Shown: positions 1,971 through 44,774 of the stretch, in pieces | Position numbering within the stretch: the first letter of the stretch is position 1 | How the letters are laid out: each line of letters starts with the position of its first letter | NCBI GenBank assembly: GCA_022865275.1 | Contig: JALIDQ010000001.1 | Span: 1-51,141, forward strand | Direction: 5' to 3' | Origin: Candidatus Nanohalarchaeota archaeon QJJ-9 | GTDB lineage: Archaea; Nanohalarchaeota; Nanosalinia; Nanosalinales; Nanoanaerosalinaceae | Length of the DNA: 51,141 nt | Notes under the pieces: model-generated | The model's input: the letters and a program-made list of their open reading frames with translations, nothing else | Database searches by the model: none | Told to the model about the DNA's origin: nothing | Position numbers and translations under genes: made by a program

Positions 1971-2064
1971 TGGGCCTGAGCGGATTTGAACCGCTGATCT
2001 TCGCCTCGTGAAGGCGACGTCTTAGTCCCGAGTTCTTCGGTCTAACCAGCTAGACCACAGGCCC
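1971..2064 (-). tRNA. tRNA-Val (anticodon CAC) with a non-canonical intron of about 21 nt between D-arm and anticodon stem
   Basis: Minus-strand read: GGGCCTG-TG-GTCT-AGCTGGTT-AGAC ... G-TCGCC-TTCACGA-GGCGA-AGATC-AGCGG-TTCAAAT-CCGCT-CAGGCCC-A. The cloverleaf closes only if about 21 nt (roughly 2019-2039, CGAAGAACTCGGGACTAAGAC) are removed. The exact boundary is ambiguous because AGAC is duplicated. CCA is not encoded. Confidence 0.8.
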
Positions 2065-2857: not shown

Positions 2858-2910
2858 TGGACTCGCGGGGATTTGAACCCTGAGATTCTCGCCAGAGAAT
2901 CGAGGTTATG
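2858..2910 (-). repeat. Orphan copy of the tRNA-Ala 3' end (T-loop to discriminator) preceded by a GATTCTC-TGGC-GAGAATC hairpin
   Basis: 23-nt exact direct repeat tggactcgcggggatttgaaccc at 2858-2880 and 2947-2969 (the latter inside tRNA-Ala). The orphan has a mismatched T-stem 5' strand (CAGGG vs CCCCG) and no acceptor 5' strand nearby. Confidence 0.6.
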
Positions 2911-2946
2911 AAATCCTTTGGAGCGAAGAAACGGAGCGTAGCGAAG

Positions 2947-3109
2947 TGGACTCGCGGGGATTTGAACCCCGGGCCTCTTCCAATTTGGCTCTTGGTTCGG
3001 ACACGAACCTCGTGTCGAAGATCAAAGATCTTCTCCAACCGTTTTCCCTCAAAGATTCGGAAAAACGGTGTTGCCAAGGAAGCGTTCTGCCAAGCTGAAC
3101 TACGAGCCC
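2947..3109 (-). tRNA. tRNA-Ala (anticodon GGC) with 89-nt intron
   Basis: GGGCTCG-TA-GTTC-AGCTTGGCA-GAAC-G-CTTCC-TTGGCAA [intron 2982-3070] GGAAG-AGGCC-CGGGG-TTCAAAT-CCCCG-CGAGTCC-A. The G3:U70 alanine identity pair is present. Mature length 74 nt. Confidence 0.85.
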
Positions 3110-3563: not shown

Positions 3564-4171
3564 ACCAGTTCAACCTCCTCATAGTCCTTTACACCGTCTT
3601 CACCCAGCTCTACTGCGAAGCCTTTCCCGGTCTCTACCGCGGAGCAGTTGAATACCTCGGTATCCATCAGATGGAAGTGGCCGAAGTCTTCGTGTATATG
3701 TCCTGTAAACCATGCAGCAGGCTTTTCCTTAAGTATAAGCTTTCTGAATCCTGGCATCCCAGCCCTGTTACCGCTTCTTGTAGCGTCACCCAGCCTATCA
3801 GGAGGATAATGGGATAAAAATATAGTCTTGCGTCCATCCTCACCGCTTAGCCATTCCTGAACGTCTTTTTTATAGTCTTCAGGGAAAACTGAGCCTATGA
3901 CAACTATCCTATACTCTCCGAACTCCACTTTCATATATCTGAAAAGGTTCTCGAACTCTTCGTTCTTTGGAGGTGTAAAGTCGAAATCCCAGTTCCCCAC
4001 CGCTGCAAACATAGGGATCTCTACGTTGTTTAGAAGCTTCTCGTAGTCCTCTTCCTTTACAAAATCTCCTCCTGAGAGGAACAGGTCGTACTCTCCAGAG
4101 TTCGCTTCTTTGATCGCCGCGTCGATAAGCTCGTCTCTGCTATGGAAGTCTGAAACGCATAGAATCTTCAT
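3560..4171 (-). CDS. Metallophosphoesterase (calcineurin-like)
   Basis: MKILCVSDFHS, LSGGDF, AVGNWD and TGHIHED motifs. The track start at 4183 is an alternative; I prefer ATG 4171 (MKILCVSD). Confidence 0.8.
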   Translation of the reverse strand: MKILCVSDFHSRDELIDAAIKEANSGEYDLFLSGGDFVKEEDYEKLLNNVEIPMFAAVGNWDFDFTPPKNEEFENLFRYMKVEFGEYRIVVIGSVFPEDYKKDVQEWLSGEDGRKTIFLSHYPPDRLGDATRSGNRAGMPGFRKLILKEKPAAWFTGHIHEDFGHFHLMDTEVFNCSAVETGKGFAVELGEDGVKDYEEVELV

Positions 4172-4649: not shown

Positions 4650-4834
4650 TGGACCCTCCGGGGTTCGAACCCGGGACCGCCGCCTATCTCACGACTGGCG
4701 TCCCAGTCGGCAGGACGGTCGCGTTCAAGGGAACGCTCCGACGCTCCGCGGCTGGTATGTTTCGCGCCACTTCTGAGTATATGGGCGCGATGTCCGTATA
4801 AGGACGGTGCTCTAACCAACTGAGCTAAGGGTCC
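4650..4834 (-). tRNA. tRNA-Ile (anticodon UAU) with 111-nt intron at 37/38
   Basis: GGACCCT-TA-GCTC-AGTTGGTTA-GAGC-A-CCGTC-CTTATA [intron 4686-4796] A-GGCGG-CGGTC-CCGGG-TTCGAAC-CCCGG-AGGGTCC-A. Loop CTTA can pair with intron-terminal TGAG, flanked by 3-nt bulges (bulge-helix-bulge-like). Confidence 0.7.
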
Positions 4835-7359: not shown

Positions 7360-7512
7360 GGTATTTCCTCCTTTACTGTCTTTTCTTTTTTCTTCACTCC
7401 TTCTTTCCTTGACTATCTCCCTATTCGAGGCTGAAACCGAGCCAGAGGGGAAAGTTATTTATAGAGGGATGGATAGTTTGATTATGTAAGTATAAAACCA
7501 GGTGTGTTAAAA

Positions 7513-8061
7513 ATGCCAGACGAAGAAGAGGTAAAGCTATCTGCTGATAATCAGGATTCTGACGAATATGAGATAATCCCTATGGGTCCTGTGAGGAAGC
7601 TTGAAAAGAGGATTGACGAACTTGAGGAACAGAAAAGCCAGAGTATGTCCGGCAACGAGAACCTTGTCCGCGATATTCTCGATATAATGAAAGCCAATCA
7701 AAAGATTGTCAACGACATGGTGCAGTCCAACACCGAGCTCCATAACTCTATCGAGGAGCTTACCACTAAGATGGATAAGGTTATGGGCAATATGAGTGAT
7801 TTTATGGGGCTTTTGGAGGAAGCTTCTGAAGCTTCACTCGAGGAAGATGTATCCGCTAACCTCAGCGAGGATCTTGTCTCCCCTATTTCTGACAGTATGG
7901 AGAATCTCAAGCACACGAACGAAAAGATGCTTGAAGGTTTAGGAAAGATTGATGAAAGCCTAAACCAGCTTGATAAGCGGATGAAGAGGTTGTACGCTTC
8001 TCAACGGAGTTCTTCAAACCGTGGTACTACTAGACAATCGTCTAGAGGCCAGTCCCAATAA
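7513..8061 (+). CDS. Acidic coiled-coil protein immediately upstream of the pilus operon
   Basis: About 180 aa, heptad-rich and D/E-rich with a basic Ser/Arg tail. Stop is 3 nt before the first pilin ORF. No family recognised. Confidence 0.5.
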   Translation: MPDEEEVKLSADNQDSDEYEIIPMGPVRKLEKRIDELEEQKSQSMSGNENLVRDILDIMKANQKIVNDMVQSNTELHNSIEELTTKMDKVMGNMSDFMGLLEEASEASLEEDVSANLSEDLVSPISDSMENLKHTNEKMLEGLGKIDESLNQLDKRMKRLYASQRSSSNRGTTRQSSRGQSQ

Positions 8062-13419: not shown

Positions 13420-14259
13420 ATGCATAAGGAGGGACAGATTTCTATAGACTATGTAGGGGGAGCTATGATATTCTTTGTTTCGATAGTTTTCGTTGTGCAG
13501 GGTATCGTAGGGACTATCCCTCAGTATTCCAGCATCGCCGAATCTAACCGTGAGGAGATAGCGGCATGGGGCCTATCAACTTCTCTTGTAAGTGATACAG
13601 GGTACTGGTCTGATGTGTACGATGGCACCAACTGGGAGGACAATGTTATCACAGGAAAGGTGAAGCGGATAGGTCTAAAGTCGCCGGAGGGATCTGGGGT
13701 TTCACGTGAGAAGATAAACAAGCTACTTGGTATGGATTATAAGGAGATAAAGAAGCTATTCGAGACAGGGAAGGATTTCAGCATAGAGTTTACAGAATAT
13801 GCGGTTGTAAAGCTTTCAGGAGAGTTTTATAGAGGAGGGGATATAGACGGTATAGAGACCTATAACGGTTTTAAACCTCCCAGTGATGGTTTAGGCGGTG
13901 CGGATAGGTATATGCGGTATGGGACTATATCTATCAATGGATCGGAGAGGTATTTTCTAGCATCCTTTGATGACTCTGATTTCGATGGTCTTTATGTTTC
14001 CGACTCTATAGATTTTTCAAGCTCTGAGAAACTTGAGCAGGGAGAACTTAAGACACTCGACTTTAACGGTAGAAGGTTCAGGTTCGGTTTAGGGAGTTCA
14101 GGCCTTTCTACCAGTAACGGAAAGATTCTGCTGGTGGAGAGGGTGATGGGTAGGATAGGTAGGAGGATCCCGACATCGGAGGAAACCGTTACCCGCGTTA
14201 AAAGATATTCAAACACTCAGAAATCGATTATAATGCTTGATATGAGGGTCTGGAAATGA
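13420..14259 (+). CDS. Pilin-like secreted protein (class III signal peptide), 279 aa
   Basis: N-terminus MHKEG/QISIDYVGGAMIFFVSIVFVVQGIVG; overlaps the next gene (ATGA-type junction at 14256-14259). Confidence 0.5.
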   Translation: MHKEGQISIDYVGGAMIFFVSIVFVVQGIVGTIPQYSSIAESNREEIAAWGLSTSLVSDTGYWSDVYDGTNWEDNVITGKVKRIGLKSPEGSGVSREKINKLLGMDYKEIKKLFETGKDFSIEFTEYAVVKLSGEFYRGGDIDGIETYNGFKPPSDGLGGADRYMRYGTISINGSERYFLASFDDSDFDGLYVSDSIDFSSSEKLEQGELKTLDFNGRRFRFGLGSSGLSTSNGKILLVERVMGRIGRRIPTSEETVTRVKRYSNTQKSIIMLDMRVWK

Positions 14260-25204: not shown

Positions 25205-25281
25205 GCTCTTTTTCTTTTTATTCCTCTCCAGGGTTAAGAAATAAAAAGGTGTGTCCCCCTGAAACCTATGTTAGCGTCTAA

Positions 25282-25408
25282 GCCCCGTTAGCTCAGCTGG
25301 GAGAGCACGTCCTTGGTATCTCAGGACACACTCCGAACCCGATGCCAACGCGAGTTGAGTCTGAGAACAGAAAGGACGAGGTCCCGGGTTCGAATCTCGG
25401 ACGGGGCT
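25282..25408 (+). tRNA. tRNA-Thr (anticodon GGU) with 54-nt intron
   Basis: GCCCCGT-TA-GCTC-AGCTGGGA-GAGC-A-CGTCC-TTGGTA [intron 25319-25372] A-GGACG-AGGTC-CCGGG-TTCGAAT-CTCGG-ACGGGGC-T. Confidence 0.85.
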
Positions 25409-25467
25409 TCACTCTGTTTATTATTCTGTAAAAGGTTCAAAGGCCCAGGAATGAATAAAAAGAGCTG

Positions 25468-31125: not shown

Positions 31126-33075
31126 ATGTATGTTATGGCTCTGAAAAAGATAGTAGCTGCTCTGTTCATAATCGGAATCGCATCAACTGCATACTTTACA
31201 GGAACAGTCCAACTTCCTGGAGGGGAAGACGATCAAATAAACCTCCAGACTTTTGAATCAGAGGAAGATTTCATAAAGTACCTTAACGAGTCAGGAGCAG
31301 CTATAGGGGGAATGGAGTCTTATGCTGCGTCTAGTCGGCTTGAAAGTCAGTCGTCCGATATTGGTGAGACTGATACATCCGGAGATAGTTCTGTTAAGCG
31401 TTATTCCGAGACCAATGTTCAGGAACAGGGAATCCAGGAGTCTGATATATTAAAGACGGACGGCGAACATTTCTACTTCTCCCCAGAGAGGCATTTCTAC
31501 GGTATAATGCCTGTAGGCTCTCCAGCCACTTTTAGAGACCATACCAGAGAGGAAAACCTCTCAATATTCAACTCCCTTCCACCAGAAAACGTTTCGGAGA
31601 AGGCGCAGATAGAAGGAACAGGCAAGCTTCTACTCAAGGACGACACGCTCGTGGTTGTTTCGAACAGAAAAATAAAAGGAATAGACGTTTCGGACCGTTC
31701 AAATCCTAAGATCTCCTGGGAATACCAGTTAAACAGCTCTGTAGTGACTTCCAGGCTCTACGATGGAGATATCTACCTTGTATTGAGGAAAAATGTATAC
31801 AAATCCGATCCCTGCCCACTCGAGATAGCCGAGGCTAAAGGACCTGTTAAGGTTCGGTGTACAGACATCTATCATCCCTCCGAGCCCGTGGAAGTCGATA
31901 CCACGTATAACATACTTAAGATGAGTACTGGAGGTGAAATTAAGGAAAAAACTTCCTTTGTAGGCTCTACAGGCAATTCAGAGGTATATATGTCTGAGGA
32001 CTCGATATACACAACCTATCTGGAGAGAAAGAGCCGTCAAGAAATTTTCTTGGACTTTATGGTATCCGATAGAGCAAAGGATATTTTTGATTCCGAACTG
32101 CACCAGAAGATGGTAGAGATAGAATCCTCTGACATGGACTCTTGGGAAAAAATGAGAAAGATGGGAGAGGCCTTTGAAAACTATACAGAAAATATGACAC
32201 GAGAGGAAAGGCAGGAGAGGTCTGAAGAGATAGAATACGCGTTTGGAAACTATACAAAAGACCATCTGAGAGAGTTCTCGGAAACAGGTATAGTCAAAGT
32301 CTCCGCTGAAAGTCTGGAAGTCGATAGTACAGGCAAGGTTCCAGGAAAAACTCTCAACCAGTTCTCTATGGACCAGTACAATGGAGACCTCCGTATAGCT
32401 ACTACAGTAGGAGCGAATCTCTTCGGAACAGGAGGCAGTACAGAGAATGACCTGTACGTTTTAGGAGACGACTTAGATATCAAAGGTTCTGTAAAAGGGA
32501 TGGGAGTAGATGAGAGGATTTATTCGGTACGTTTCATAGACGATCAGGGCTATGTTGTCACCTTTAGAAGAATCGATCCTTTCCATGTACTAGATTTATC
32601 TGAGCCGTCCGATCCTACCCTTGAAGGAGAGCTAAAGCTTCCAGGATTCTCATCGTACCTCCATCCTCTCTCAGAGGACAGGATTCTCGGTATAGGTGAG
32701 GAGGATGGTAAGGTAAAAGCAGTAGTGTTCGACGTCTCTGATCCCACGGATCCAAAGGTGGAGGACGACAGGATAATCGATTCGTACGGTTCAGAGATAT
32801 CACAGACCCATCACGCGTTTATGATAGACAGGAAGCATAAGATATTCTTCCTCCCAGCATCCAAAGGCGGGTATATCTTCTCCTACAAGGATGGATTAGA
32901 GGAAGTCAAGCGAGTGGATATAGAAGATCCATTAAGAGCTAGGTACATCAACGATTATCTCTACATCTTCTCGAACCATGAGATAGCTGTTGTAGACGAG
33001 ACAGACTGGGAAACTGTGAATACACTCCAGTTCAGGGAGGAAGAATCAGATTATGGGGAACTCCCTGTACGCTAG
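31126..33075 (+). CDS. Membrane-anchored beta-propeller domain protein (Beta_propel family)
   Basis: N-terminal anchor IVAALFIIGIASTAYF and the family signature RYSETNVQEQGIQESDILKTDGEHFYF; about 650 aa. Confidence 0.7.
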   Translation: MYVMALKKIVAALFIIGIASTAYFTGTVQLPGGEDDQINLQTFESEEDFIKYLNESGAAIGGMESYAASSRLESQSSDIGETDTSGDSSVKRYSETNVQEQGIQESDILKTDGEHFYFSPERHFYGIMPVGSPATFRDHTREENLSIFNSLPPENVSEKAQIEGTGKLLLKDDTLVVVSNRKIKGIDVSDRSNPKISWEYQLNSSVVTSRLYDGDIYLVLRKNVYKSDPCPLEIAEAKGPVKVRCTDIYHPSEPVEVDTTYNILKMSTGGEIKEKTSFVGSTGNSEVYMSEDSIYTTYLERKSRQEIFLDFMVSDRAKDIFDSELHQKMVEIESSDMDSWEKMRKMGEAFENYTENMTREERQERSEEIEYAFGNYTKDHLREFSETGIVKVSAESLEVDSTGKVPGKTLNQFSMDQYNGDLRIATTVGANLFGTGGSTENDLYVLGDDLDIKGSVKGMGVDERIYSVRFIDDQGYVVTFRRIDPFHVLDLSEPSDPTLEGELKLPGFSSYLHPLSEDRILGIGEEDGKVKAVVFDVSDPTDPKVEDDRIIDSYGSEISQTHHAFMIDRKHKIFFLPASKGGYIFSYKDGLEEVKRVDIEDPLRARYINDYLYIFSNHEIAVVDETDWETVNTLQFREEESDYGELPVR

Positions 33076-36321: not shown

Positions 36322-36635
36322 TTTAAGACCTCCGAAGCCCGCCTGCCTGGGTCGAACAGGCATCTCCGGGTTTAACTGGTGTGTTGCCTGGACGCTTGCG
36401 GGGGATTTTAGAAGTAGTAGACTGCGTCCTTTTACACTAAGGCGGGTTGAGTTAGAAGGTTTCGTCCACCTTTCCACCCACCTGGCTTATTTCCTGGCGG
36501 GTTTCGAGGAGAACTACTCCTCAGAATTATCTCCACATGATATCTGTGGAGTAGAAGTGTAGCTTTGTGACTAGGCCGATCTTTTCTCCGCTATTGTCCG
36601 AAGGCCCAGTCGCATTTATCATTTTGACCAACGCA
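36322..36635. ncRNA. Unassigned structured non-coding region (candidate RNA gene; identity and strand unresolved)
   Basis: About 310 nt without a credible ORF and visibly more GC-rich than neighbouring spacers. Several perfect hairpins (CTCCACA-N7-TGTGGAG, GAGGAG-N5-CTCCTC, GGACGC...GCGTCC). On the minus strand there is a tRNA-like T-arm plus acceptor (GCCTG-TTCGACC-CAGGC-AGGCGGG, pairing with upstream CCCGCCT). A TTTTTAAAT box sits at 36654-36662 on the minus strand. Confidence 0.3.
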
Positions 36636-36812: not shown

Positions 36813-36817
36813 CTATG

Positions 36818-36844
36818 CTTTTTCTTTTTAGAAAAAAGAAAAAG
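36818..36844. terminator. Perfect 12-bp A/T hairpin downstream of tRNA-Pro
   Basis: CTTTTTCTTTTT-AGA-AAAAAGAAAAAG at 36818-36844. It presents a T-run on either strand and lies between convergent tRNA-Pro and the phosphoribosyltransferase gene. Confidence 0.35.
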
Positions 36845-36971
36845 TAAAGTTTTACAAAAAGAAAAACGTATGGATTCGGTTAGCAAGCTAACCGACTTGT
36901 AGTTCTTGTAAAGAAAGATTTTCTGCGCCGCAGTTCCCTCTATTCTTAGCTTTTTATTCCTTCTCTACTCC

Positions 36972-38909: not shown

Positions 38910-38996
38910 GTTTTTCCTTGTTTTCTTTGTTTTTCTGGTCCTATTAACGAAGCCTTTATAAAGTTTTGAATATATATTCATAAGTGGTGATTGAAG

Positions 38997-39296
38997 ATGC
39001 CAAACCTAGACGGAACCGGACCAAGGGGACGAGGCCCTCTTACGGGAAGAGGTCTCGGACCTTGCGGAAGAGGAAGAGCCCGTTCAAGAGCTCCTAAACG
39101 AGGATTCGCTTTTAGAAGGGGTGGAAGATTTGGAAGAGCTCCTCTTAGAGGTAGGAACGATTACGCTTACAGAAACAAACCTCGGAATACGAGGTTTACA
39201 GAGGAAGAGGAGAAGGAGATGATCAAACAGGAACTTGAGGAGCTTAAGAAGGAACGAGAAGACCTTGAGAAACGCCTTGAGGAGCTTGGGGGCTGA
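38997..39296 (+). CDS. DUF5320-family protein
   Basis: MPNLDGTGPRGRGPLTGRGLGPCG N-terminus typical of DUF5320, followed by a coiled-coil tail. Confidence 0.65.
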   Translation: MPNLDGTGPRGRGPLTGRGLGPCGRGRARSRAPKRGFAFRRGGRFGRAPLRGRNDYAYRNKPRNTRFTEEEEKEMIKQELEELKKEREDLEKRLEELGG

Positions 39297-39329
39297 ACCC
39301 CTTTTTACTTTTTATAACGGTGTTATACA

Positions 39330-39626
39330 ATGCCAAGACCGAGGAGGAGGAGAAGGGTTAGAAGAAGACCTGCAGCGGATTTTTACAAGCCGGCAGGAAT
39401 ACCTAAACGCGAGCTTGAAGAGGTCAATCTTAAAGTAGAAGAAGTCGAGGCTCTGAGGTTGAAGGACGCGGAAGGAAGGTCTCAGGAGGATGCTGCTGAC
39501 GAGATGGATGTCTCGCAGTCTACTTTCCATAGGATTCTGACTTCTGCAAGGGAGAAGGTTGCGGAGGCTGTAACTGAAGGAATGGCTCTTAGAATAGAGG
39601 GGGGAAGCTATGAGATTGAGGAGTAG
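39330..39626 (+). CDS. DUF134 (UPF0251) putative DNA-binding protein
   Basis: MPRPRRRRRVRRRPAADFYKPAGIP N-terminus and HTH-like DEMDVSQSTFHRILTSAREKVAEA. Confidence 0.8.
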   Translation: MPRPRRRRRVRRRPAADFYKPAGIPKRELEEVNLKVEEVEALRLKDAEGRSQEDAADEMDVSQSTFHRILTSAREKVAEAVTEGMALRIEGGSYEIEE

Positions 39627-40062
39627 AATAGTTAGTATTGATTATGAAGGACTTAGAAGCTCGTTTCGCAGAGCTGCGAAGGGTTTATCTAACGCTTTAC
39701 CTATGATAGTCGGAGTCGTCTTCTTGATGGGGCTTGTGAAGAGTTTTGTACCCAAGAGTTTCTATATAGAATTTCTAGGCGGATCCTGGCTCCGATCAAG
39801 TCTTATGGGTTCTGGTGTAGGAAGCGTTCTCGCAGGTAACCCTGTTACCTCGTATATAATCGGAGGGGAGATGCTTTCTCAAGGGGTTGGTCTCTATGCG
39901 GTAACCTCGTTTATCCTTGCATGGGTTACAGTTGGAATAGTCCAGTTCCCAGCGGAATCTGAGGAGCTTGGAAGAAGGTTTGCTTTGACGAGAAATGTTT
40001 TTAGCTTTTTACTAGCTCTTGCAGGTGGTTTTGTAACCGTGGCTATCCTGGGGGTGCTATGA
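39610..40062 (+). CDS. Small polytopic membrane protein (permease half)
   Basis: 150 aa with about 4 TM helices. Overlaps both neighbours and sits within the DUF134/NifX-like cluster. Confidence 0.5.
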   Translation: MRLRSRIVSIDYEGLRSSFRRAAKGLSNALPMIVGVVFLMGLVKSFVPKSFYIEFLGGSWLRSSLMGSGVGSVLAGNPVTSYIIGGEMLSQGVGLYAVTSFILAWVTVGIVQFPAESEELGRRFALTRNVFSFLLALAGGFVTVAILGVL

Positions 40063-40580
40063 TGCTTTACAGCTATTTTAAGAGGAGCTTTAGGAAATGG
40101 GTTTTTGTAGCTATTGTAGGAGGTTTTTACGGCCTAGGATGGTTTTTAAGACCTGAAAAAGCTGTTTCAGCTTTTTACAGCTCTGTTGGAATTTTTAGAA
40201 ATATACTGCCTGTTTTTGTTCTGGTATTTGCTCTGATGGGAGTTACTAACTATTTTGTAAAGCCTAAGAAGCTTCTGAACTATTTTGGGAGTCATAGAAG
40301 TGTTAAGGGGTGGATTATAGCGTCTCTAGCAGGGATTATTTCGCATGGACCGATTTTTATGTGGTATCCGTGGCTTTCTGATCTTCAGGAGAAAGGAGTC
40401 GGCAACGGTTTTATAGCTACATTTCTATACAACCGGGCTGTGAAGGTTCCTCTGATCCCTTTTATGGCGCTCTATTTTGGGATAGACTTTGTTGCTGTAC
40501 TTACTCTTGTTATGATAGTTTTTTCCCTTTTTCAAGGAGTTTTAGTCGGCAAACTTTTAGAAAACAAAGGAGGTGATTGA
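40059..40580 (+). CDS. Small polytopic membrane protein (permease half)
   Basis: 173 aa with about 5 TM helices; ATGA overlap with the preceding gene. Confidence 0.5.
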   Translation: MMLYSYFKRSFRKWVFVAIVGGFYGLGWFLRPEKAVSAFYSSVGIFRNILPVFVLVFALMGVTNYFVKPKKLLNYFGSHRSVKGWIIASLAGIISHGPIFMWYPWLSDLQEKGVGNGFIATFLYNRAVKVPLIPFMALYFGIDFVAVLTLVMIVFSLFQGVLVGKLLENKGGD

Positions 40581-40887
40581 TTTGAAAGTTGCTGTAGCTT
40601 CTGAATCTGATTCGAGGTCTGGAAAGGTTAGCAGTAAGGCTGGAAGAGCTCCTTTCTACCTGATTTTCGAGGACGGCGAGCTTGTTGAGACATGGAAGAA
40701 CGAGTATGCTGAGGCTCGTGGGGGGGCTGGAAGAAATGTTCCTGAGGAGCTTGACAGGAAGGGCGTTGATAAGGTTTTGGCTGGAAACTTTGGAGGGAAT
40801 ATGGAGACCAAGCTCAAGCAGCTCGGTATTGCCTATAGTACGGTGGGAGCTGTTGATGTGGAAGAGACTGTTGAGCTCGGGTCTTGA
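40573..40887 (+). CDS. NifB/NifX-family (dinitrogenase FeMo-cofactor-binding fold) small protein
   Basis: About 104 aa: KVAVASE...GRAPFYLIFEDGELV...GVDKVLAGNFGGN, the pattern of stand-alone NifX/NifB C-terminal-like proteins. GTG start follows AAGGAGG. Confidence 0.6.
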   Translation: MIDLKVAVASESDSRSGKVSSKAGRAPFYLIFEDGELVETWKNEYAEARGGAGRNVPEELDRKGVDKVLAGNFGGNMETKLKQLGIAYSTVGAVDVEETVELGS

Positions 40888-40985
40888 TTGGTTTTGGTTG
40901 TTGGAGGTAGGGCTGTGGGACAAAATTTATTTAAGTATACCCGCCGCCTATTTTTTCCGAGAGTTAGGAGTTTTTGAGGTAAATT

Positions 40986-41115
40986 CCCTCCTTAGCTCAG
41001 GTCACAGATCAGAGATCTGTTCGATGACCTAACGCTGGGATTTTTTGCAAAATCCCTCCTTAGCTCAGTTGAAAACCTGGCGGTTTTCGGCTATGAGCTA
41101 ATACCGGGATCAAAA
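40986..41115 (+). repeat. Two extra copies of the tRNA-Tyr 5' end (CCCTCCTTAGCTCAG), each followed by a different hairpin spacer
   Basis: The exact 15-mer occurs at 40986-41000, 41054-41068 and 41116-41130 (the last is the start of the real tRNA). Spacer hairpins: GGTCA-CAGATC-AGA-GATCTG-TTCGA-TGACC (41000-41029) and GAAAACC-TGGC-GGTTTTC (41071-41088). Confidence 0.7.
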
Positions 41116-41220
41116 CCCTCCTTAGCTCAGCCTGGCAGAGCGTCCGCCTGTAGCACCAGCCGGATGCTATCCACTGTTTCAGCCAGCGGATCGTCCCCCG
41201 TTCAAATCGGGGAGGAGGGA
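41116..41220 (+). tRNA. tRNA-Tyr (anticodon GUA) with 31-nt intron
   Basis: CCCTCCT-TA-GCTC-AGCCTGGCA-GAGC-G-TCCGC-CTGTAG [intron 41154-41184] A-GCGGA-TCGTC-CCCCG-TTCAAAT-CGGGG-AGGAGGG-A. Has the C1:G72 pair characteristic of archaeal tRNA-Tyr. Confidence 0.9.
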
Positions 41221-41267
41221 TTTCTATTTTTTCCTTTGATTTTTTCTCGTTTTACAGGTTTTTCAGA

Positions 41268-41336
41268 GATTTGAACGACCTTGATTCTCTTCGAGAACCG
41301 TGGAGTGCAAATCGGGGAGGAGGGATTTCTATTTTT
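41268..41336 (+). repeat. Orphan copy of the tRNA-Tyr 3' end preceded by an inverted T-loop fragment and a TTCTC-TTC-GAGAA hairpin
   Basis: 29-nt exact direct repeat caaatcggggaggagggatttctattttt at 41203-41231 and 41308-41336. Upstream lie GATTTGAAC (inverted partner of GTGCAAATC) and TTCTCTTCGAGAA (41285-41297). Confidence 0.65.
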
Positions 41337-41378
41337 CTTTCCGTTAACTGTTTAAGTCCTCCGAAAGAATTTTTGGGT

Positions 41379-41948
41379 ATGGATTTCAGAGACCGTTACA
41401 GCGAGTTTTTCGAACAGCTCGACGATAAGTTCTTCGACGAGGAGAGGTTTGTTCCTGCGGAAGGAACTCTGGAAGCGGAATACATGCTTGTAGGAGAGGC
41501 TCCTGGAGCTAACGAGGTAAAAGAAAAGGAACCTTTCGTGGGAAGGGCTGGGGAGAAGATGAATGATATACTTGAGGAGATAGGCGTGGAAAGAGAGGAG
41601 CTTTACATAACCAACCTGGTAAAGGTAAGACCACCGGACAACCGAGACCCAAGAAAGAATGAGATAGAGGCTTGGAGACCTCTTCTCGACAAGGAGATTC
41701 TTGATATCGATCCTGAAGTTATTCTTACGATGGGAAACTTTGCCTCGAGGCAGTTGCTTGATACTAAAAAAGGTATAACCCAGATACATGGCAGGCTGTT
41801 TACAAGGAACGGTAGGAAGATAATGCCTGTGTATCATCCTGCTGCAACTCTGTACGATAATTCTAAAACCCCTGTGTTCAAGGAAGACCTTAAGAAAGCG
41901 TTCGGAAAGGCTGATACGGGTCAGAAAACTTTTAAGGATAGTTTCTGA
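41379..41948 (+). CDS. udg: Uracil-DNA glycosylase, family 4
   Basis: LVGEAPGANEVKEKEPFVGRAGEKM (motif A) and VYHPAATLYD (motif B). The track start at 41271 reads through the orphan tRNA fragment, so ATG 41379 is preferred. Confidence 0.85.
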   Translation: MDFRDRYSEFFEQLDDKFFDEERFVPAEGTLEAEYMLVGEAPGANEVKEKEPFVGRAGEKMNDILEEIGVEREELYITNLVKVRPPDNRDPRKNEIEAWRPLLDKEILDIDPEVILTMGNFASRQLLDTKKGITQIHGRLFTRNGRKIMPVYHPAATLYDNSKTPVFKEDLKKAFGKADTGQKTFKDSF

Positions 41949-41959
41949 GGTCTTTAGTC

Positions 41960-42310
41960 ATGGAAAGGCTAGACGGTTCTGACTGGATTGATAGAGAGAA
42001 CTACCGCAAGAAGATTGTTGCTCCAGAAGGGGAGCTTGAAGGTGAGGGAACGTTTATGCAGGTTGTTGAAGTTCCAAAGGGCAATCACGTTCCTCTCCAT
42101 AGGCACGATACTACGGAGGAGGTCTTCTACATCCTGCAGTCGGGTGGTAGGCTGGTTATCAACGGAGAGGAGCTTAGGCCTGAGGAAGGTGATGTTATTG
42201 TCTGCGAACCAGGAGACGAGCACGAGGTCTTCAACAACTCTGGCCAGACGTTCTGCATCCTTGTCTTTAAGATCAACTATGAGGAGGACGATACCGAGTG
42301 GCTGGAATAA
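41960..42310 (+). CDS. Cupin-domain protein
   Basis: HRHDTTEEVFYILQSGGRLVINGEE...GDVIVCEPGDEHEVFN two-motif cupin pattern. Confidence 0.7.
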   Translation: MERLDGSDWIDRENYRKKIVAPEGELEGEGTFMQVVEVPKGNHVPLHRHDTTEEVFYILQSGGRLVINGEELRPEEGDVIVCEPGDEHEVFNNSGQTFCILVFKINYEEDDTEWLE

Positions 42311-43182
42311 TGGAGCGGTATGAGGAGATTATACCGGACTTTGAGAGGTTCAAGGAGGTTGCTAAGACCCACCAGCCCCGAGAGGTCCGCGTAAATACTC
42401 TAAAGTCTTCTGTCTCTGAGGTAAAGAGGATGTTTGATAGGGAAGGTGTAGAATACGAGCAGCGGGACTGGAACCCTCGTTTCTTTAGGATTGATTCGTC
42501 CCCTGGGAAGCTTTTTTCTCACTGGCTGGGGAAGATTTACGGGCAGGAGTCTGTCTCAGGGATTCCTAGCCTTGCTTTGGAGCCGAAGCCTGGTGAGAAG
42601 GTGTTGGACTTGTGTGCGGCTCCTGGCTCTAAGACCACTCAGATCGCCGCGTTGATGGGTAATCAGGGCGAAATCTTTGCGAACGATAAGTCGAGTAATC
42701 GGTTGAGGAGTCTTGTGGCGAATGTCTACCGGACCGGTGCATTAAACGTTCAGACTTTTCAGAGGGATGCTAGAAACCTTCCTGAGGACTGGAAGTTTGA
42801 CAAGGTCCTTGTCGATGCTCCGTGTTCTGCTGAGGGAAATCTTCGGGAGAAGGAGGAGCTAAGACAGGGAGCTGATATTTCCCAGGTGGAAAGCCTTTCT
42901 GAGCTGCAGAAGGCTTTGCTTGGGAAGGGTTTCAGGCTTCTTAAGGAGGGAGGAACTCTGGTCTATTCTACCTGTACCTTTGCTCCTGAGGAGAATGAGG
43001 AGGTTGTTGCTGAGTTTTTGGGTGGGGCGGAACTTGTTGATCTGAGTTTTGATTTTTCTCATTCGAATGGCTTGACTTCGTGGAAAGGCGAGGCTTTTCC
43101 TTCTAAACTTGAGAACGCTGTAAGGGTCTACCCGCACCAGCTTGATTCTGGAGGGATTTTTGTTGCCAAGTTTGAGGGATGA
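42310..43182 (+). CDS. NOL1/NOP2/Sun-family RNA cytosine-C5 methyltransferase
   Basis: VLDLCAAPGSKTTQIAAL (SAM), DKVLVDAPCSAEG (motif IV PC) and LVYSTCTFAPEENE (motif VI TC). ATG 42310 overlaps the cupin stop (TAATG). Confidence 0.85.
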   Translation: MERYEEIIPDFERFKEVAKTHQPREVRVNTLKSSVSEVKRMFDREGVEYEQRDWNPRFFRIDSSPGKLFSHWLGKIYGQESVSGIPSLALEPKPGEKVLDLCAAPGSKTTQIAALMGNQGEIFANDKSSNRLRSLVANVYRTGALNVQTFQRDARNLPEDWKFDKVLVDAPCSAEGNLREKEELRQGADISQVESLSELQKALLGKGFRLLKEGGTLVYSTCTFAPEENEEVVAEFLGGAELVDLSFDFSHSNGLTSWKGEAFPSKLENAVRVYPHQLDSGGIFVAKFEG

Positions 43183-43644: not shown

Positions 43645-43760
43645 TGCTGGCGGCCAGAGCGAGGGGGCAACACCTGTACCCATCCCGAACACAGAAGTAA
43701 AGTCCCTCAGCGATCTGGCCGGTACTGCCGGAAGGCGGGAAAACCAGGACGCTGCCAGCC
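43645..43760 (+). rRNA. rrf: 5S ribosomal RNA (not linked to 16S/23S in this window)
   Basis: GCTGGCGGCCAGAGCGAGGGGGCAACACCTGTACCCATCCCGAACACAGAAGTAAAGTCCCTCAGCG...GGACGCTGCCAGCC. Contains the conserved GTACCCATCCCGAACAC core, a terminal helix GCTGGC/GCCAGC, and a following TTTT. Confidence 0.95.
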
Positions 43761-44319: not shown

Positions 44320-44424
44320 CTCTTTGCTTGGAAGGTTTTTCTCTGGGTGGTTGTGAATGAAAGGATTTAGTTCTGGAAACCTTCTTAAAACTATTCATAC
44401 AAAGATTTGGATGCTGAAGGGTTT

Positions 44425-44499
44425 GCCGAGATGGTGTAGTCCGGCCCATCATACCAGCCTGTCACGCTGGTGACGCGGGTTCAAATCCCGCTCTCGGCG
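44425..44499 (+). tRNA. tRNA-Asp (anticodon GUC), intronless
   Basis: Acceptor GCCGAGA/TCTCGGC, GGTGTAGTCCGGCCCATCAT D-region, anticodon arm CCAGC-CTGTCAC-GCTGG, T-arm GCGGG-TTCAAAT-CCCGC, discriminator G. Confidence 0.9.
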
Positions 44500-44774
44500 T
44501 CACTTCGTTCCTTGAAGAGTTTTTCAGGGGTTACAAGCTCTACTTCTCTTTCTTTCAGTTCTTCTGTCTTCTGGAAATTATAGTTGAGTGGAAAAATCTT
44601 ATGATCAGCAGCGGTCTGTACCCGTAAAATTCCTTGTCCAGACACCCAGTTAGTCTCATCAATTTTTTCTTCAACTATATAAGCATCATCTGAGAGCAGG
44701 GTGTCCTTCCAGCTTGAGTAGGTGTTTTCCCTGGACTGACAGTAGCCTCTGTACTGTTGACATACGGTTATCAT
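44481..44774 (-). CDS. Hypothetical protein whose last codons are antisense to the tRNA-Asp 3' end
   Basis: 97-aa ORF; the stop and final 6 codons overlap tRNA-Asp (44481-44499). A truncated, start-less homologue of its C-terminus (EELKEREIDLATPEKLLKDEINAESGV) follows the second att copy at about 46146-46250. Confidence 0.4.
   Translation of the reverse strand: MITVCQQYRGYCQSRENTYSSWKDTLLSDDAYIVEEKIDETNWVSGQGILRVQTAADHKIFPLNYNFQKTEELKEREVELVTPEKLFKERSDAESGI

Follow-up and report, generated by a model that had tools for sequence, protein, structure and literature searches.

The tRNA-Tyr gene in the window (the whole 51,141-nucleotide stretch analyzed here) carries small gene-less hairpin modules at both of its ends, and these modules belong to an apparently undescribed family that flanks several tRNA genes in Nanohaloarchaeota. 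We read the modules as repeated site-specific DNA insertions with target duplication, that is, as miniature or eroded integrative elements, a reading we hold at about even confidence. The array on the 5' side would then consist of one working tRNA-Tyr (41116-41220) behind two tandem gene-less insertions, with the following features:

40924..40935, + strand: TATA-like core AATTTATTTAAG of a putative promoter, recognized by sequence and recurring in relatives
40986..41000, + strand: outer copy 1 of tRNA-Tyr nt 1-15 (pseudo-5' end), an exact 15-mer with no tRNA after it
41004..41020, + strand: module 1 hairpin ACAGATC-aga-GATCTGT, a perfect 7 bp that aligns with the hairpins of other 5' modules
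41025..41046, + strand: module 1 inverted segment TGACCTAA..GGGA, antisense to tRNA nt 7-14 (7/8), then a T6 run
41054..41068, + strand: outer copy 2 of tRNA-Tyr nt 1-15 (pseudo-5' end), an exact 15-mer, also in the independent contig L041
41071..41088, + strand: module 2 hairpin GAAAACC-tggc-GGTTTTC, read from the sequence
41094..41110, + strand: module 2 inverted segment TGAGCTAA-tacc-GGGAT, perfect antisense of nt 7-14, with GGGAT pairing with ATCCC
41116..41220, + strand: predicted functional tRNA-Tyr(GTA), ARAGORN with introns allowed (-i), with a 31-nt intron

The first-pass annotation had reported a triplicated tRNA-Tyr 5' end, and CCCTCCTTAGCTCAG was indeed observed as an exact match at 40986, 41054 and 41116 on the + strand, with no further matches in the window when up to two mismatches were allowed. 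Three matches were reached by 0 of 100 dinucleotide shuffles. Re-reading of the sequence agreed with the earlier account of the A-rich tract ahead of each copy and of both spacers between the copies, and ARAGORN likewise found a complete tRNA only from copy 3 (41116), with no tRNA after copies 1 and 2. The intron-aware prediction that had been proposed as a check (ARAGORN -i) gave one tRNA-Tyr(GTA) at 41116-41220, and the bulge-helix-bulge check placed its intron at 41154-41184 (H 3/4, h 5/5, h' 4/5); introns related to this one were also observed in two relatives (L066, L070). Default ARAGORN, run with no intron option, wrongly called the locus as tRNA-SeC, and the Rfam tRNA model did not detect the gene even at E<=10.

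A TATA-like box had been placed ahead of the array; the box is real and its position was one base off, tttatttaagtata occupying 26-39 of the 409xx block. The core AATTTATTTAAG was also observed about 40 nt upstream of tRNA-Tyr in L066 and L061, and the TATA-like variants AACTTATTTAAG and AAGGTATTTAAG were observed ahead of tRNA-Tyr in L071, L072, L064 and L068. The whole 5' array lies downstream of the AATTTATTTAAG promoter-like motif. The 5' modules would presumably be transcribed as a long structured leader and cut off by RNase P, in which case the extra 15-mers would not be exons.

Two Logan contigs from two other sequencing runs matched the window at 100% identity, covering 41041-42447 and 41194-42448, with copy 1 lying outside both. 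Because both contigs match fully, copies 2 and 3 and both copies of the 3' repeat described below were independently confirmed. Short repeats near tRNAs can mis-assemble, and one relative (L061) does contain a real scaffolding artifact, an N-gap flanked by duplicated tRNA-Tyr. An assembly or scaffolding origin of the array nevertheless has a negligible probability in our judgment, given these identical contigs from two runs and the same module architecture in the complete genomes CP046106 and CP012986 and in many MAGs.

Spacer 1 reads GGTCA-CAGATC-AGA-GATCTG-TTCGA-TGACC ... GGGATTTTTT and spacer 2 reads GAAAACC-TGGC-GGTTTTC ... CTATGAGC, and the two insertions measure 68 and 62 bp from copy start to copy start. 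Both fold as rods, module 1 with a z of -2.94 and module 2 with a dG of -28.7 kcal/mol and a z of -5.95. The T6 run at the end of module 1 (41041-41046) is a possible archaeal terminator. Copy 2 had been described as a D-arm carrying an intron-like insertion; the description was right, as GAGC does follow the copy, but this GAGC is probably better read as part of TGAGCTAA, an 8-bp inverted copy that zips the outer copy into the rod. No ORFs were observed inside the modules, no other copies of the two spacers were found in the window or the related loci by blastn-short, and BLAST of the window 5' modules against phage and plasmid records gave no related match. Rfam 15 over 40800-41500 at E<=10 returned nothing relevant, only noise far under threshold (SNORA77, msiK).

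On the 3' side, the first-pass annotation had noted the second AGGAGGG strand and missed the 3' repeat containing it. The features of this side and of the sister module at another tRNA gene are:

41200..41231, + strand: 3' direct repeat copy A, GT[T/G]CAAATCGGGGAGGAGGGATTTCTATTTTT, spanning T-loop, 3' end and 11 nt of trailer and reaching into the first T6 run
41268..41277, + strand: 3' module inverted segment GATTTGAACG, antisense to the T-arm CGTTCAAATC (10/10)
41283..41299, + strand: 3' module hairpin GATTCTC-ttc-GAGAACC, with a near-equal hairpin in the 3' module of the window's tRNA-Ala
41305..41336, + strand: 3' direct repeat copy B, pseudo-3' end GTGCAAATCGGGGAGGAGGGATTTCTATTTTT, 31/32 identical to copy A
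2858..2916, - strand: sister 3' module at tRNA-Ala(GGC), with GGATTTCATAACC, hairpin GATTCTC-tggc-GAGAATC and outer copy GGGTTCAAATCCCCGCGAGTCCA

Copy B is unable to form a tRNA because it is without the T-stem 5' strand. Two T6 runs follow tRNA-Tyr, at 41227-41232 and 41240-41245. The GATTTGAACG-type inverted element was also observed in L005, L066, L061, L068 and L070, and the rod of the tRNA-Ala 3' module had a z of -2.68.

Among the options offered by the first-pass annotation, scars of repeated 5'-side integration came closest to the evidence, in that the copies behave as target- or attachment-type direct repeats bounding two gene-less insertions, and insertions bounded likewise were observed at the tRNA-Tyr 3' end and at other tRNAs. 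Neutral, decaying scars were rejected because the modules belong to a structured family recurring across Nanohaloarchaeota. Both 5' insertions would have landed at one point, after G15 in the D-loop, and the tRNA-Tyr gene would have stayed intact because each of them duplicated its target, nt 1-15, with a dead 5' end left at the distal border of each insertion. The third module, a mirror image, would have entered at the T-loop and duplicated the T-loop-to-trailer stretch. Insertion, presumably mediated by a recombinase, would have been repeated over time in Nanohaloarchaeota by tandem accretion. The anatomy matches one end of a tyrosine-integrase element that targets tRNA genes, with direct attachment-site repeats and an inverted tRNA fragment but nothing inside; in our reading the modules are therefore either non-autonomous miniature forms of such elements or what extreme deletion has left of them.

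The host of the window is itself a nanohaloarchaeon (DPANN). Comparison with related genomes, another check that had been suggested, found a duplicated tRNA-Tyr 5' end in 10 genomes and not in the window alone, with a total of eleven 5' modules at tRNA-Tyr (two in the window, the others in L070, L003, L007-L010 and L014-L016). Mirror-image 3' modules were observed at tRNA-Tyr in 10 genomes, and further 3' modules at tRNA-Ala (window), tRNA-Pro (two in L061, and L066) and tRNA-Ser (L011); the tRNA-Pro of L061 carries a 5' copy besides its 3' modules. Tandem modules were observed at both ends, two on the 5' side of the window tRNA-Tyr and two on the 3' side of the L061 tRNA-Pro. From the outside in, each module starts with a direct copy of the tRNA end (the outer copy), followed after 1-6 nt by a hairpin and, a few nt further, by a short inverted copy of that tRNA segment, then by a tail and the tRNA; it can be described as a rod-shaped palindrome because the outer copy and the inverted copy zip up. 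The hairpin has 5-8 bp, usually 7 bp, and is typically GAnnnTC-loop-GAnnnTC. The outer direct copy spans 15 bp on the 5' side (12 bp at the L061 tRNA-Pro) and 22-42 bp on the 3' side, with 47-73 bp between the repeats in the window and up to 105 bp in relatives. The 3' repeats begin at the T-loop and extend past the tRNA into the trailer, including the terminator T-run in the window and in L066.

The presence of modules was patchy. Of two sister genomes, L064 lacks a module whereas L068 has a 3' module, and 5' modules number 0, 1 or 2 per genome in the clade to which the window belongs. Normal tRNA-Tyr genes without modules were observed in L004, L064, L071 and L072, and L066 is without a 5' module. 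The 5' and 3' modules occur independently of each other in 6 of the 13 module-bearing genomes. Within the 286 kb examined (loci each <=51 kb), modules were seen only at tRNA genes; a total of 11 module-type hairpins was observed in these 286 kb, 9 of them tRNA-associated.

The independent occurrence of the two module types bears on a possible role of the fragments in RNA, be it as alternative exons, as pieces of a split or permuted tRNA, or as partners of the AGGAGGG strands, joined by a splicing endonuclease and a ligase. The genome is rich in tRNA introns, one of them in a D-arm region, the outer copies co-vary with the acceptor stem, and pairing over 10-11 bp is possible between the outer 5' copies and either AGGAGGGATTT. 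The fragments are nonetheless redundant with a complete tRNA gene, identical to it and without anticodon arms, and we consider such a role very improbable. The bulge-helix-bulge scan and in-register test covered all possible junctions, on the 5' as well as the 3' side, for the window and for all relatives, and the in-register result was negative for c1-c2, c2-c3, c1-c3 and every relative. The sole high scorer of the 5' in-register scan was a low-complexity A/U helix in the leader, while the true intron passes, and in-register 3' matches merely mirror the duplicated T-arm. The earlier suggestion of decoy or alternative 5' exons thus found no support, as the complete gene exists and no in-register bulge-helix-bulge joins the copies. 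The suggested pairing with the two AGGAGGG strands fared no better: 11 bp are possible on paper, but the modules are independent in those 6 of 13 genomes, and in the window T6 runs stand between tRNA-Tyr and its 3' module.

Two related structures were also considered and rejected. An outer cloverleaf, in which the outer 5' and 3' copies enclose the real tRNA, was rejected because the modules occur independently and a T-arm cannot form from the 3' copies of clade A. Decay of tandem tRNA genes was rejected as well: the 'TA' that pairs with U8-A9 is preserved in the segment after the hairpin, which makes this segment a genuine antisense copy rather than what is left of a D-stem and acceptor.

Returning to the insertion reading, the outer and inverted parts of the modules behave differently. 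Of 11 modules, 8 have an outer 5' copy without any difference from the resident tRNA and 3 have one that is 1 nt off, across the acceptor types TCC, GAC and GGC. The inverted segments, unlike the outer copies, do not track the resident tRNA. In L070, CTGAGCTAAGTCGG is perfect antisense of a GAC-type tRNA while the resident acceptor is CCCTCCT; the inverted segment of module 2 in the window fits a CCCGG-type acceptor better than the resident CCCTCC type, and for the inverted segments of both window modules (c1 and c2) the best match is a CCCG-type acceptor (GGC, with GGC and GCC tied for c1). This difference between copies and inverted segments is expected for an insert that brings its inverted part along, with the direct repeat either generated or matched when the insertion takes place. 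The argument cuts both ways, since a classical integrase element would itself carry resident-type nt 1-15, and identical copies are no proof of fill-in duplication.

Hairpins were alike within one genome, across its tRNAs, and unlike between genomes. The hairpin GAAAATC/GATTTTC is common to the Tyr and Pro modules of L061, the Tyr and Pro modules of L066 have near-identical hairpins, and GATTCTC/GAGAAYC is common to the Tyr and Ala modules of the window. The module 2 hairpin belongs to the GAAAAYC/GRTTTTC hairpin family, as in the 3' modules of L061 and L066.

These patterns can be set against an origin with no element at all, in which fork stalling at highly transcribed tRNA genes and template switching would produce X - X' - X micro-duplications, with gene conversion and palindrome correction then keeping the copies alike. 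The X - X' - X pattern was observed on both sides, and the 3' duplication ranges between 22 and 42 bp in length. The inverted segments match, as exact local antisense, the T-stem of the lineage concerned, with GATTTGAACG in genomes of the CCCCG/CGGGG T-stem and GGATTTGAA in genomes of the CCAGG/CCTGG T-stem, and L010 shows junction microhomology (..CTCGGAT / GGATTTGA..). However, this origin leaves unexplained a non-tRNA hairpin common to different tRNAs of one genome and to 5' and 3' modules, its constant position beside the outer copy, 5' inverted segments that match a non-resident acceptor type, and the integrase-linked analogue described below. We regard it as improbable.

Signs of constraint were observed in the modules. 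L009 and L015 agree at 100% over the core of the 3' module, while their neighboring trailer and downstream DNA cannot be aligned, and a compensatory stem change separates L061 (GAAAATC/GATTTTC) from L068 (GAAGATC/GATCTTC). Judged from these sequences, the conserved core and compensatory changes suggest selection, unlike a dead scar, and count against the insertion reading; other possible causes are host function, recent transfer and template switching that corrects palindromes.

Host function would make the modules leader and trailer rods of the pre-tRNA, with the decoy tRNA-end copy sequestering the adjacent antisense segment. Such rods could tune folding, RNase P or RNase Z timing, stability and termination, or could yield small hairpin RNAs, and this function may be compatible with an origin of the modules as insertions. 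The architecture has been kept across deep divergence though flanking direct repeats should ease deletion, the L009/L015 core is invariant between randomized flanks with substitutions concentrated in the hairpin loop, and pairing is kept through at least 9 stem sequences, including the A-T to G-C double change of L061/L068. Template switching in palindromes, however, can mimic compensatory changes without selection. Rod stability lies far beyond that of shuffles (z down to -5.95), but exact identity over nt 1-15 is unexplained by rod pairing, as c2 nt 4-6 are unpaired yet identical. The 5' modules lie downstream of a conserved promoter and are therefore probably transcribed, and clade B's only T-run comes after the outer 3' copy; against this, the window and L066 have T6 runs between the tRNA and the 3' module, and module 1 itself ends in T6, upstream of the tRNA. 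Sense-strand folds are better than antisense folds by 4-12 kcal/mol in L009, L015 and L010, yet an overall sense-strand bias is absent: the sense strand was not consistently more stable, and 9 of the 11 5' modules fold slightly better as antisense, a lack of bias that fits DNA palindromes. Many close relatives without modules keep a normal tRNA-Tyr. The modules match no Rfam family, and C/D box, K-turn and bulge-helix-bulge were not seen. On balance, we judge a host function unlikely.

The C/D box and K-turn candidates were checked by eye, and the CGAUGA-like and CUGA-like strings were not conserved. An acceptor-minihelix mimic was also not conserved, because nt 1-5 pairing is absent in L007, L008 and L014.

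Tests of 20 window ORFs and inspection of the gene tables for related loci revealed no integrase, transposase or Cas1, and no Phage_integrase domain was observed among the same 20 ORFs. A full-size nanohaloarchaeal element with module-type ends was not found in the search. When viral contigs were searched for attP sites using patterns from relatives' 5' and 3' modules and the 15-mer, the matches were only unrelated phage coding DNA and giant-virus tRNAs, a negative limited by viral and plasmid collections that likely hold few nanohaloarchaeal mobile elements. The pattern GAAAATC..GATTTTC..GTTCAAATC had 0 matches in viral contigs, GATTTGAACG..CGTTCAAATC matched 3 loci by pattern alone, and the 5' rod pattern matched generic palindromes, none of them tRNA-linked.

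The pattern GGATTTGAA-N8-38-GGTTCAAATCC was observed at 85 loci in the viral contig collection, mainly as an inverted copy of a tRNA 3' fragment abutting a direct fragment. An integrase homologue lay within 1.5 kb in 63 of the 73 loci checked (of 85), and one contig (L077) has X'-loop-X and a tRNA 3' fragment 60 nt from a Phage_integrase gene. These viral loci are unrelated, probably bacterial elements, and the analogue covers the 3' type only.

A circle of 60-130 bp is below the size that ordinary site-specific recombination of double-stranded DNA can handle. To be mobile, the modules would need a single-strand or hairpin-based mechanism; otherwise they are immobile now. A broader proposal, which we put forward tentatively as possible though clearly short of even probability, is that the modules would be undescribed 50-130-bp gene-less hairpin elements, specific for the D- and T-loop of tRNA genes, still active or under selection, and related to the hairpins within the tRNA introns of this lineage, or else antisense rods of the host. 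Such elements would possibly regenerate the tRNA gene by duplicating its end and use a single-strand or hairpin-recognizing recombinase; alternatively, they would be cis-acting antisense leader and trailer devices for host tRNA maturation.

For annotation, the tRNA genes of these tiny DPANN genomes are decorated with pseudo-5' and pseudo-3' ends, and standard tools miss or miscall genes here. Should the modules be miniature integrating elements, they would show that an element targeting tRNA genes can shrink to about 50 bp and still retain the attachment-site anatomy, and they would offer a tangible path leading from integrated mobile elements to tRNA fragments and perhaps to introns, whose origin has been an open question since the split-tRNA discoveries. 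If the broader proposal is true, the modules would be a living intermediate in the generation of archaeal tRNA introns, fragments and split genes. If they serve the host, they would be a new kind of self-mimicking leader or trailer element in pre-tRNA processing.

Among known systems, the modules resemble tRNA integrative elements (archaeal SSV/pNOB8-type elements and bacterial phage tyrosine integrases) in that an intact tRNA and a partial direct copy bound the inserted DNA, and in 3' repeats that start in the T-loop and run beyond the 3' end. A DNA-level 3' duplication of 22-42 bp starting at the T-loop has the size and position classical for tRNA attachment sites (PMC9897764, PMC3293823). 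Precedents on the 5' side are known from Caldiarchaeum, where a 5' fragment of tRNA-Thr is found 1.8 kb ahead of the gene (PMC3293823), and from Thermococcales (PMC9897764). The window's three repeats in a row resemble successive integrations at one site, and the order of an inverted tRNA fragment and then a direct fragment is that of the integrase-linked viral attachment sites. The modules differ in that their inserted DNA is 47-105 bp and gene-less, whereas known elements have 1.8-23 kb and an integrase, in that no cognate integrase or free form was found for them in our searches, and in their occurrence at several tRNAs and at both ends, with a small shared hairpin conserved across genera.

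Like MITEs and REPINs, the modules are small, non-coding and hairpin-forming, have several copies in a genome, resemble each other more closely there than across genomes, and presumably need a trans-acting enzyme. Their duplicated flank, however, is 12-42 bp of a specific tRNA end and not the fixed short target-site duplication of 2-11 bp, and their 'terminal repeats' are copies of the target itself; the modules form rods of which one arm is the duplicated target. Casposons, which are large and encode Cas1 and a polymerase, insert at specific sites in tRNA genes and duplicate an unusually long stretch of the target, 14-15 bp. The 15-bp 5' duplication of the modules is of this size, but their 3' duplications vary from 22 to 42 bp, and no cas1 was observed in the ORFs tested.

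Archaeal non-canonical tRNA introns, intron transposition and split tRNAs (Thermoproteales, Caldiarchaeum, Nanoarchaeum) differ from the modules, whose position is outside the mature tRNA owing to the duplicated tRNA end and which have no bulge-helix-bulge and need no splicing; with a complete tRNA-Tyr present, the fragments are not needed for a mature tRNA. The likeness lies in short structured D- and T-loop insertions complementary to the neighboring exon, and it extends to the canonical intron of the window's tRNA-Ala, inside which we observed a hairpin of module type (GAAGATC-ttt-GATCTTC). Mobile-element integration has been proposed as a source of tRNA introns and fragments (PMC3293823, PMC4390854).

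The 15-mer CCCTCCTTAGCTCAG, reported in the first-pass annotation as a triplicated tRNA-Tyr 5' end, was observed exactly at 40986, 41054 and 41116, with no further matches in the window even when two mismatches were allowed, and three matches were reached in none of 100 dinucleotide shuffles. The sequences flanking the copies also agreed with that description, as did the restriction of a complete tRNA-Tyr to the third copy. ARAGORN with introns allowed assigned 41116-41220 to a tRNA-Tyr(GTA) interrupted by a 31-nt intron (41154-41184; bulge-helix-bulge check: central helix 3/4, outer 5/5, inner 4/5), while default ARAGORN gave a spurious tRNA-SeC(TCA) call within the gene (41143-41220) and the Rfam tRNA model did not detect it even at E <= 10. 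A repeat search found the 3' end doubled as well, with GT[T/G]CAAATCGGGGAGGAGGGATTTCTATTTTT at 41200 and 41305. An assembly artefact was ruled out because two Logan contigs from other sequencing runs were 100% identical to 41041-42447 and 41194-42448, with copy 1 lying just outside both. The finding is real and reaches well past the interval first annotated.

tRNA-Tyr loci were collected from 18 genomes, the window and 17 nanohaloarchaeal relatives (within L003-L072), by way of uracil-DNA glycosylase loci, a pattern scan of metagenomes, and contigs with a gene for the CARDB-like protein, whose gene lies ahead of tRNA-Tyr in relatives. The glycosylase gene (41379-41948) lies just downstream of the array and has relatives in Candidatus Nanohaloarchaeota (64-72% identity); the remaining window genes are housekeeping (RFC, LysRS, a class I Trp/Tyr synthetase, thermosome, NucS and 5S rRNA). 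A rough neighbour-joining tree of the CARDB-like protein gave two clades, A (the window, L061, L064, L066, L068, L070, L071, L072; acceptor CCCTCC[T/C]) and B (L003-L010, L014-L016; acceptor CCCG[A/G/C]C). The tRNA-Tyr directly follows the CARDB-like gene in relatives, while in the window genome only, five small genes intervene (38991-40887), encoding a Gly/Arg-rich 101-aa protein, a 98-aa protein, two small membrane proteins and a 104-aa protein. The distance from the glycosylase gene to tRNA-Tyr is 160 bp in the window versus 2.6-4.9 kb in L009 and L007. The window 5S rRNA gene (43646-43760) is followed ~660 bp on by a tRNA-Asp (44424-44501); in relatives the 5S gene stays close to this region, and tRNA-Asp was not detected there.

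Comparison with related genomes showed the repeated 5' end to be shared in part: nt 1-15 of tRNA-Tyr were observed again upstream of the gene in 10 genomes, the window, which alone has two, and nine relatives (L070, L003, L007-L010, L014-L016), and in none of the others. Every outer copy begins precisely at +1 and has G15 as its last base, and is followed by 2-3 nt, a 5-7-bp hairpin, a short linker and an inverted segment of tRNA nt ~6-14 (GAG(a)CTAAG, CTGAGCTAAG, TGAGCTAA, TGACCTAA), which an A-rich tail of 6-26 nt joins to the tRNA. Each of these 5' modules forms a rod, since the outer copy pairs with the inverted segment (z = -5.95 at -28.7 kcal/mol for window module 2, begun by the copy at 41054; z = -2.94 for module 1, begun at 40986; z = -2.19 for L007). 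The hairpin stems vary by lineage with pairing retained, e.g. GAAGC/GCTTC, GAAGCC/GGCTTC, GAGGCA/TGCTTC, GAAGAGA/TCTCTTC, GAAAACC/GGTTTTC and ACAGATC/GATCTGT. Upstream of the outermost copy stands a conserved putative promoter motif (AATTTATTTAAG in clade A, AACCCTCTTAAA in clade B), which in genomes with no 5' module is found at about equal distance from the tRNA itself; the 5' modules therefore sit inside the leader.

A mirror-image 3' module was observed downstream of tRNA-Tyr in ten genomes, ordered as trailer, inverted T-loop and T-stem, linker, usually a 7-bp hairpin, 1-6 nt (19 nt in L010), and a direct copy that starts at the T-loop, takes in the 3' end and continues into the trailer. 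The inverted copy fits its own lineage's T-stem (GATTTGAACG with CCCCG/CGGGG; GGATTTGAA with CCAGG/CCTGG). The direct repeats span 22-42 bp, and those of the window and L066 include a putative terminator T-run. T-runs in general are established archaeal terminators, and two T6 runs lie between the window tRNA-Tyr and its 3' module. Because the 3' duplication takes in trailer sequence, it was a DNA-level event and no copy of mature RNA. The same module was found at other tRNAs:

Window tRNA-Ala: 3' module, outer copy at 2880-2858.
L066 tRNA-Pro: 3' module.
L061 tRNA-Pro(CGG), 1950-2300: two 3' modules in tandem and a 12-nt upstream 5' copy.
L011 tRNA-Ser, 7400-7590: 3' module.

With the same module at both ends and at other tRNAs, the threefold 5' end of the window array and the threefold 3' end of L061 tRNA-Pro, the most heavily decorated tRNA seen, are two manifestations of one phenomenon. 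In the complex L011 region a T-loop-like fragment separates two GAAAATC-type hairpins, the second of which is followed by a partial 3' copy. Orphan tRNA-Pro-like copies running from T-loop to 3' end (..GGTTCAAATCCGCGCCCTGCCA), with no tRNA body in view, were observed in L010 (1-90) and L015 (~13870-13900, minus strand); both lie at the margins of the loci analysed and may represent the far repeats of larger insertions. An N run in L061 (~4045-4143) with tRNA-Tyr sequence on both sides was rejected as a biological duplication and attributed to MAG scaffolding. After the window tRNA-Pro(TGG) there is, in place of a module, a long A/T palindrome (TTTTTCTTTTTAGAAAAAAGAAAAAG, 36814-36845), and a T-loop-like string (CCGTTCAAATCC, 31697-31720) within a beta-propeller ORF (31126-33075) is probably due to chance.

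The first-pass annotation had offered decoy or alternative 5' exons among its explanations. No in-register bulge-helix-bulge motif was found from copy to copy at either end in any genome examined, while the true intron passed the same check, and the fragments are redundant with the complete gene. Nor are the 5' and 3' modules tied to each other: of the 18 genomes, 7 have both, 3 a 5' module alone, 3 a 3' module alone, 4 have none, and one, L005, has a degenerate 3' remnant only. An Rfam search (E <= 10) over 40800-41500 gave nothing relevant. For these reasons alternative exons, split-tRNA pieces and an outer cloverleaf are not supported.

Several features point to repeated insertion into DNA. 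Of 11 outer 5' copies, 8 were identical to the resident tRNA and 3 differed from it by one base, across three acceptor types, whereas the inverted segments did not track the resident tRNA: L070 has CTGAGCTAAGTCGG, a perfect antisense of a GAC-type tRNA, though its own acceptor is CCCTCCT, and the window segments best fit CCCG-type acceptors (GGC, with module 1 tying GGC and GCC). The direct repeat thus looks as though it was created, or matched, at the time of insertion, and the inverted segment looks like cargo. Hairpins were alike at different tRNAs within a genome (GAAAATC/GATTTTC at L061 Tyr and Pro; GAAAATC and GAAAATTC at L066 Tyr and Pro; GATTCTC/GAGAAYC at window Tyr and Ala) but unlike between genomes, and nearly always adjoined the outer non-functional copy, with the inverted segment on the tRNA side. 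In 286 kb, 11 hairpins of this type were observed, 9 of them tRNA-associated, including one within the canonical intron of the window tRNA-Ala. Presence was patchy, differing between the sisters L064 and L068, and genomes of the window's clade had 0, 1 or 2 5' modules. Taken overall, the sense and antisense strands of the modules folded to about the same stability.

Insertions or introns of about 20-112 nt were also observed in five of the seven other window tRNA genes:

1971-2064, minus strand: 21-23 nt of additional sequence in the D-arm region, where TTAGAC/TAAGAC is repeated.
2946-3109, minus strand: insertion or intron.
4650-4834, minus strand: insertion or intron.
25281-25410, plus strand: insertion or intron.
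36337-36446, minus strand: tRNA-Trp (CCA), found only by ARAGORN with introns, no Rfam match.

The tRNA-Ala intron (3000-3033, minus-strand gene) holds two adjoining perfect 7-bp hairpins, one of which (GAAGATC-ttt-GATCTTC) is of the flank-module type with stems identical to the L068 tRNA-Tyr 3' module; this similarity hints at building blocks common to introns and flank modules.

The mechanism best supported, at about even chances, is repeated site-specific insertion of gene-less hairpin modules. The modules would represent tRNA-targeting integrative elements in miniature or eroded form, whose insertion duplicates the tRNA end; they would be carried in the leader and trailer and removed during normal processing. 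The integration scars first suggested thus survive in part, as repeated insertion; the sequences of the modules, though, do not resemble scars in decay. The 3' core of L009 and L015 is identical save for its hairpin loop, next to a trailer and downstream DNA that are unalignable. This core, a compensatory A-T to G-C change between the L061 and L068 hairpins, and much better folding of the sense than the antisense strand in L009, L015 and L010 agree with either a role in the host or an element on which selection still acts; we consider a host-level RNA role of the modules unlikely. The same three signs could also come from recent exchange or palindrome-correcting template switching; pure template switching as the origin appears less likely still.

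Some results call for caution about the insertion mechanism: no integrase or transposase was found among 20 window ORFs tested, no parent element or recombinase was found, and the modules were absent from the viral, phage and plasmid collections searched. The literature searched gave no description of such modules. When a collection of viral contigs was scanned for an inverted T-loop with a direct T-loop within the next 8-38 nt, 85 loci were returned, dominated by a perfect palindrome in which an inverted tRNA 3' fragment abuts a direct fragment running on to ...CCCCGCTAC. In the viral contig L077, 60 nt separate the palindrome from a Phage_integrase-family gene; at 63 of 73 checked loci a homologue of this integrase lies within 1.5 kb. 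L077 (7884-8850) and ~60 similar contigs (L074-L153) have a tyrosine integrase gene beside a ~60-nt perfect palindrome of inverted and direct tRNA 3' fragments (..GGTTCAAATCCATGCCCCGCTAC), often close to contig ends, and are probably prophages of a high-GC bacterium. These elements are unrelated and probably bacterial (GC ~58% in L100; a GlgE neighbour in L077); they show an inverted copy, loop and direct tRNA fragment to be a recurrent attachment-site anatomy. In published cases, tRNA fragments made by integration lie 1.8-23 kb from the gene (PMC3293823, PMC9897764), whereas the interval between fragment and gene in the modules is 47-105 bp and gene-free.
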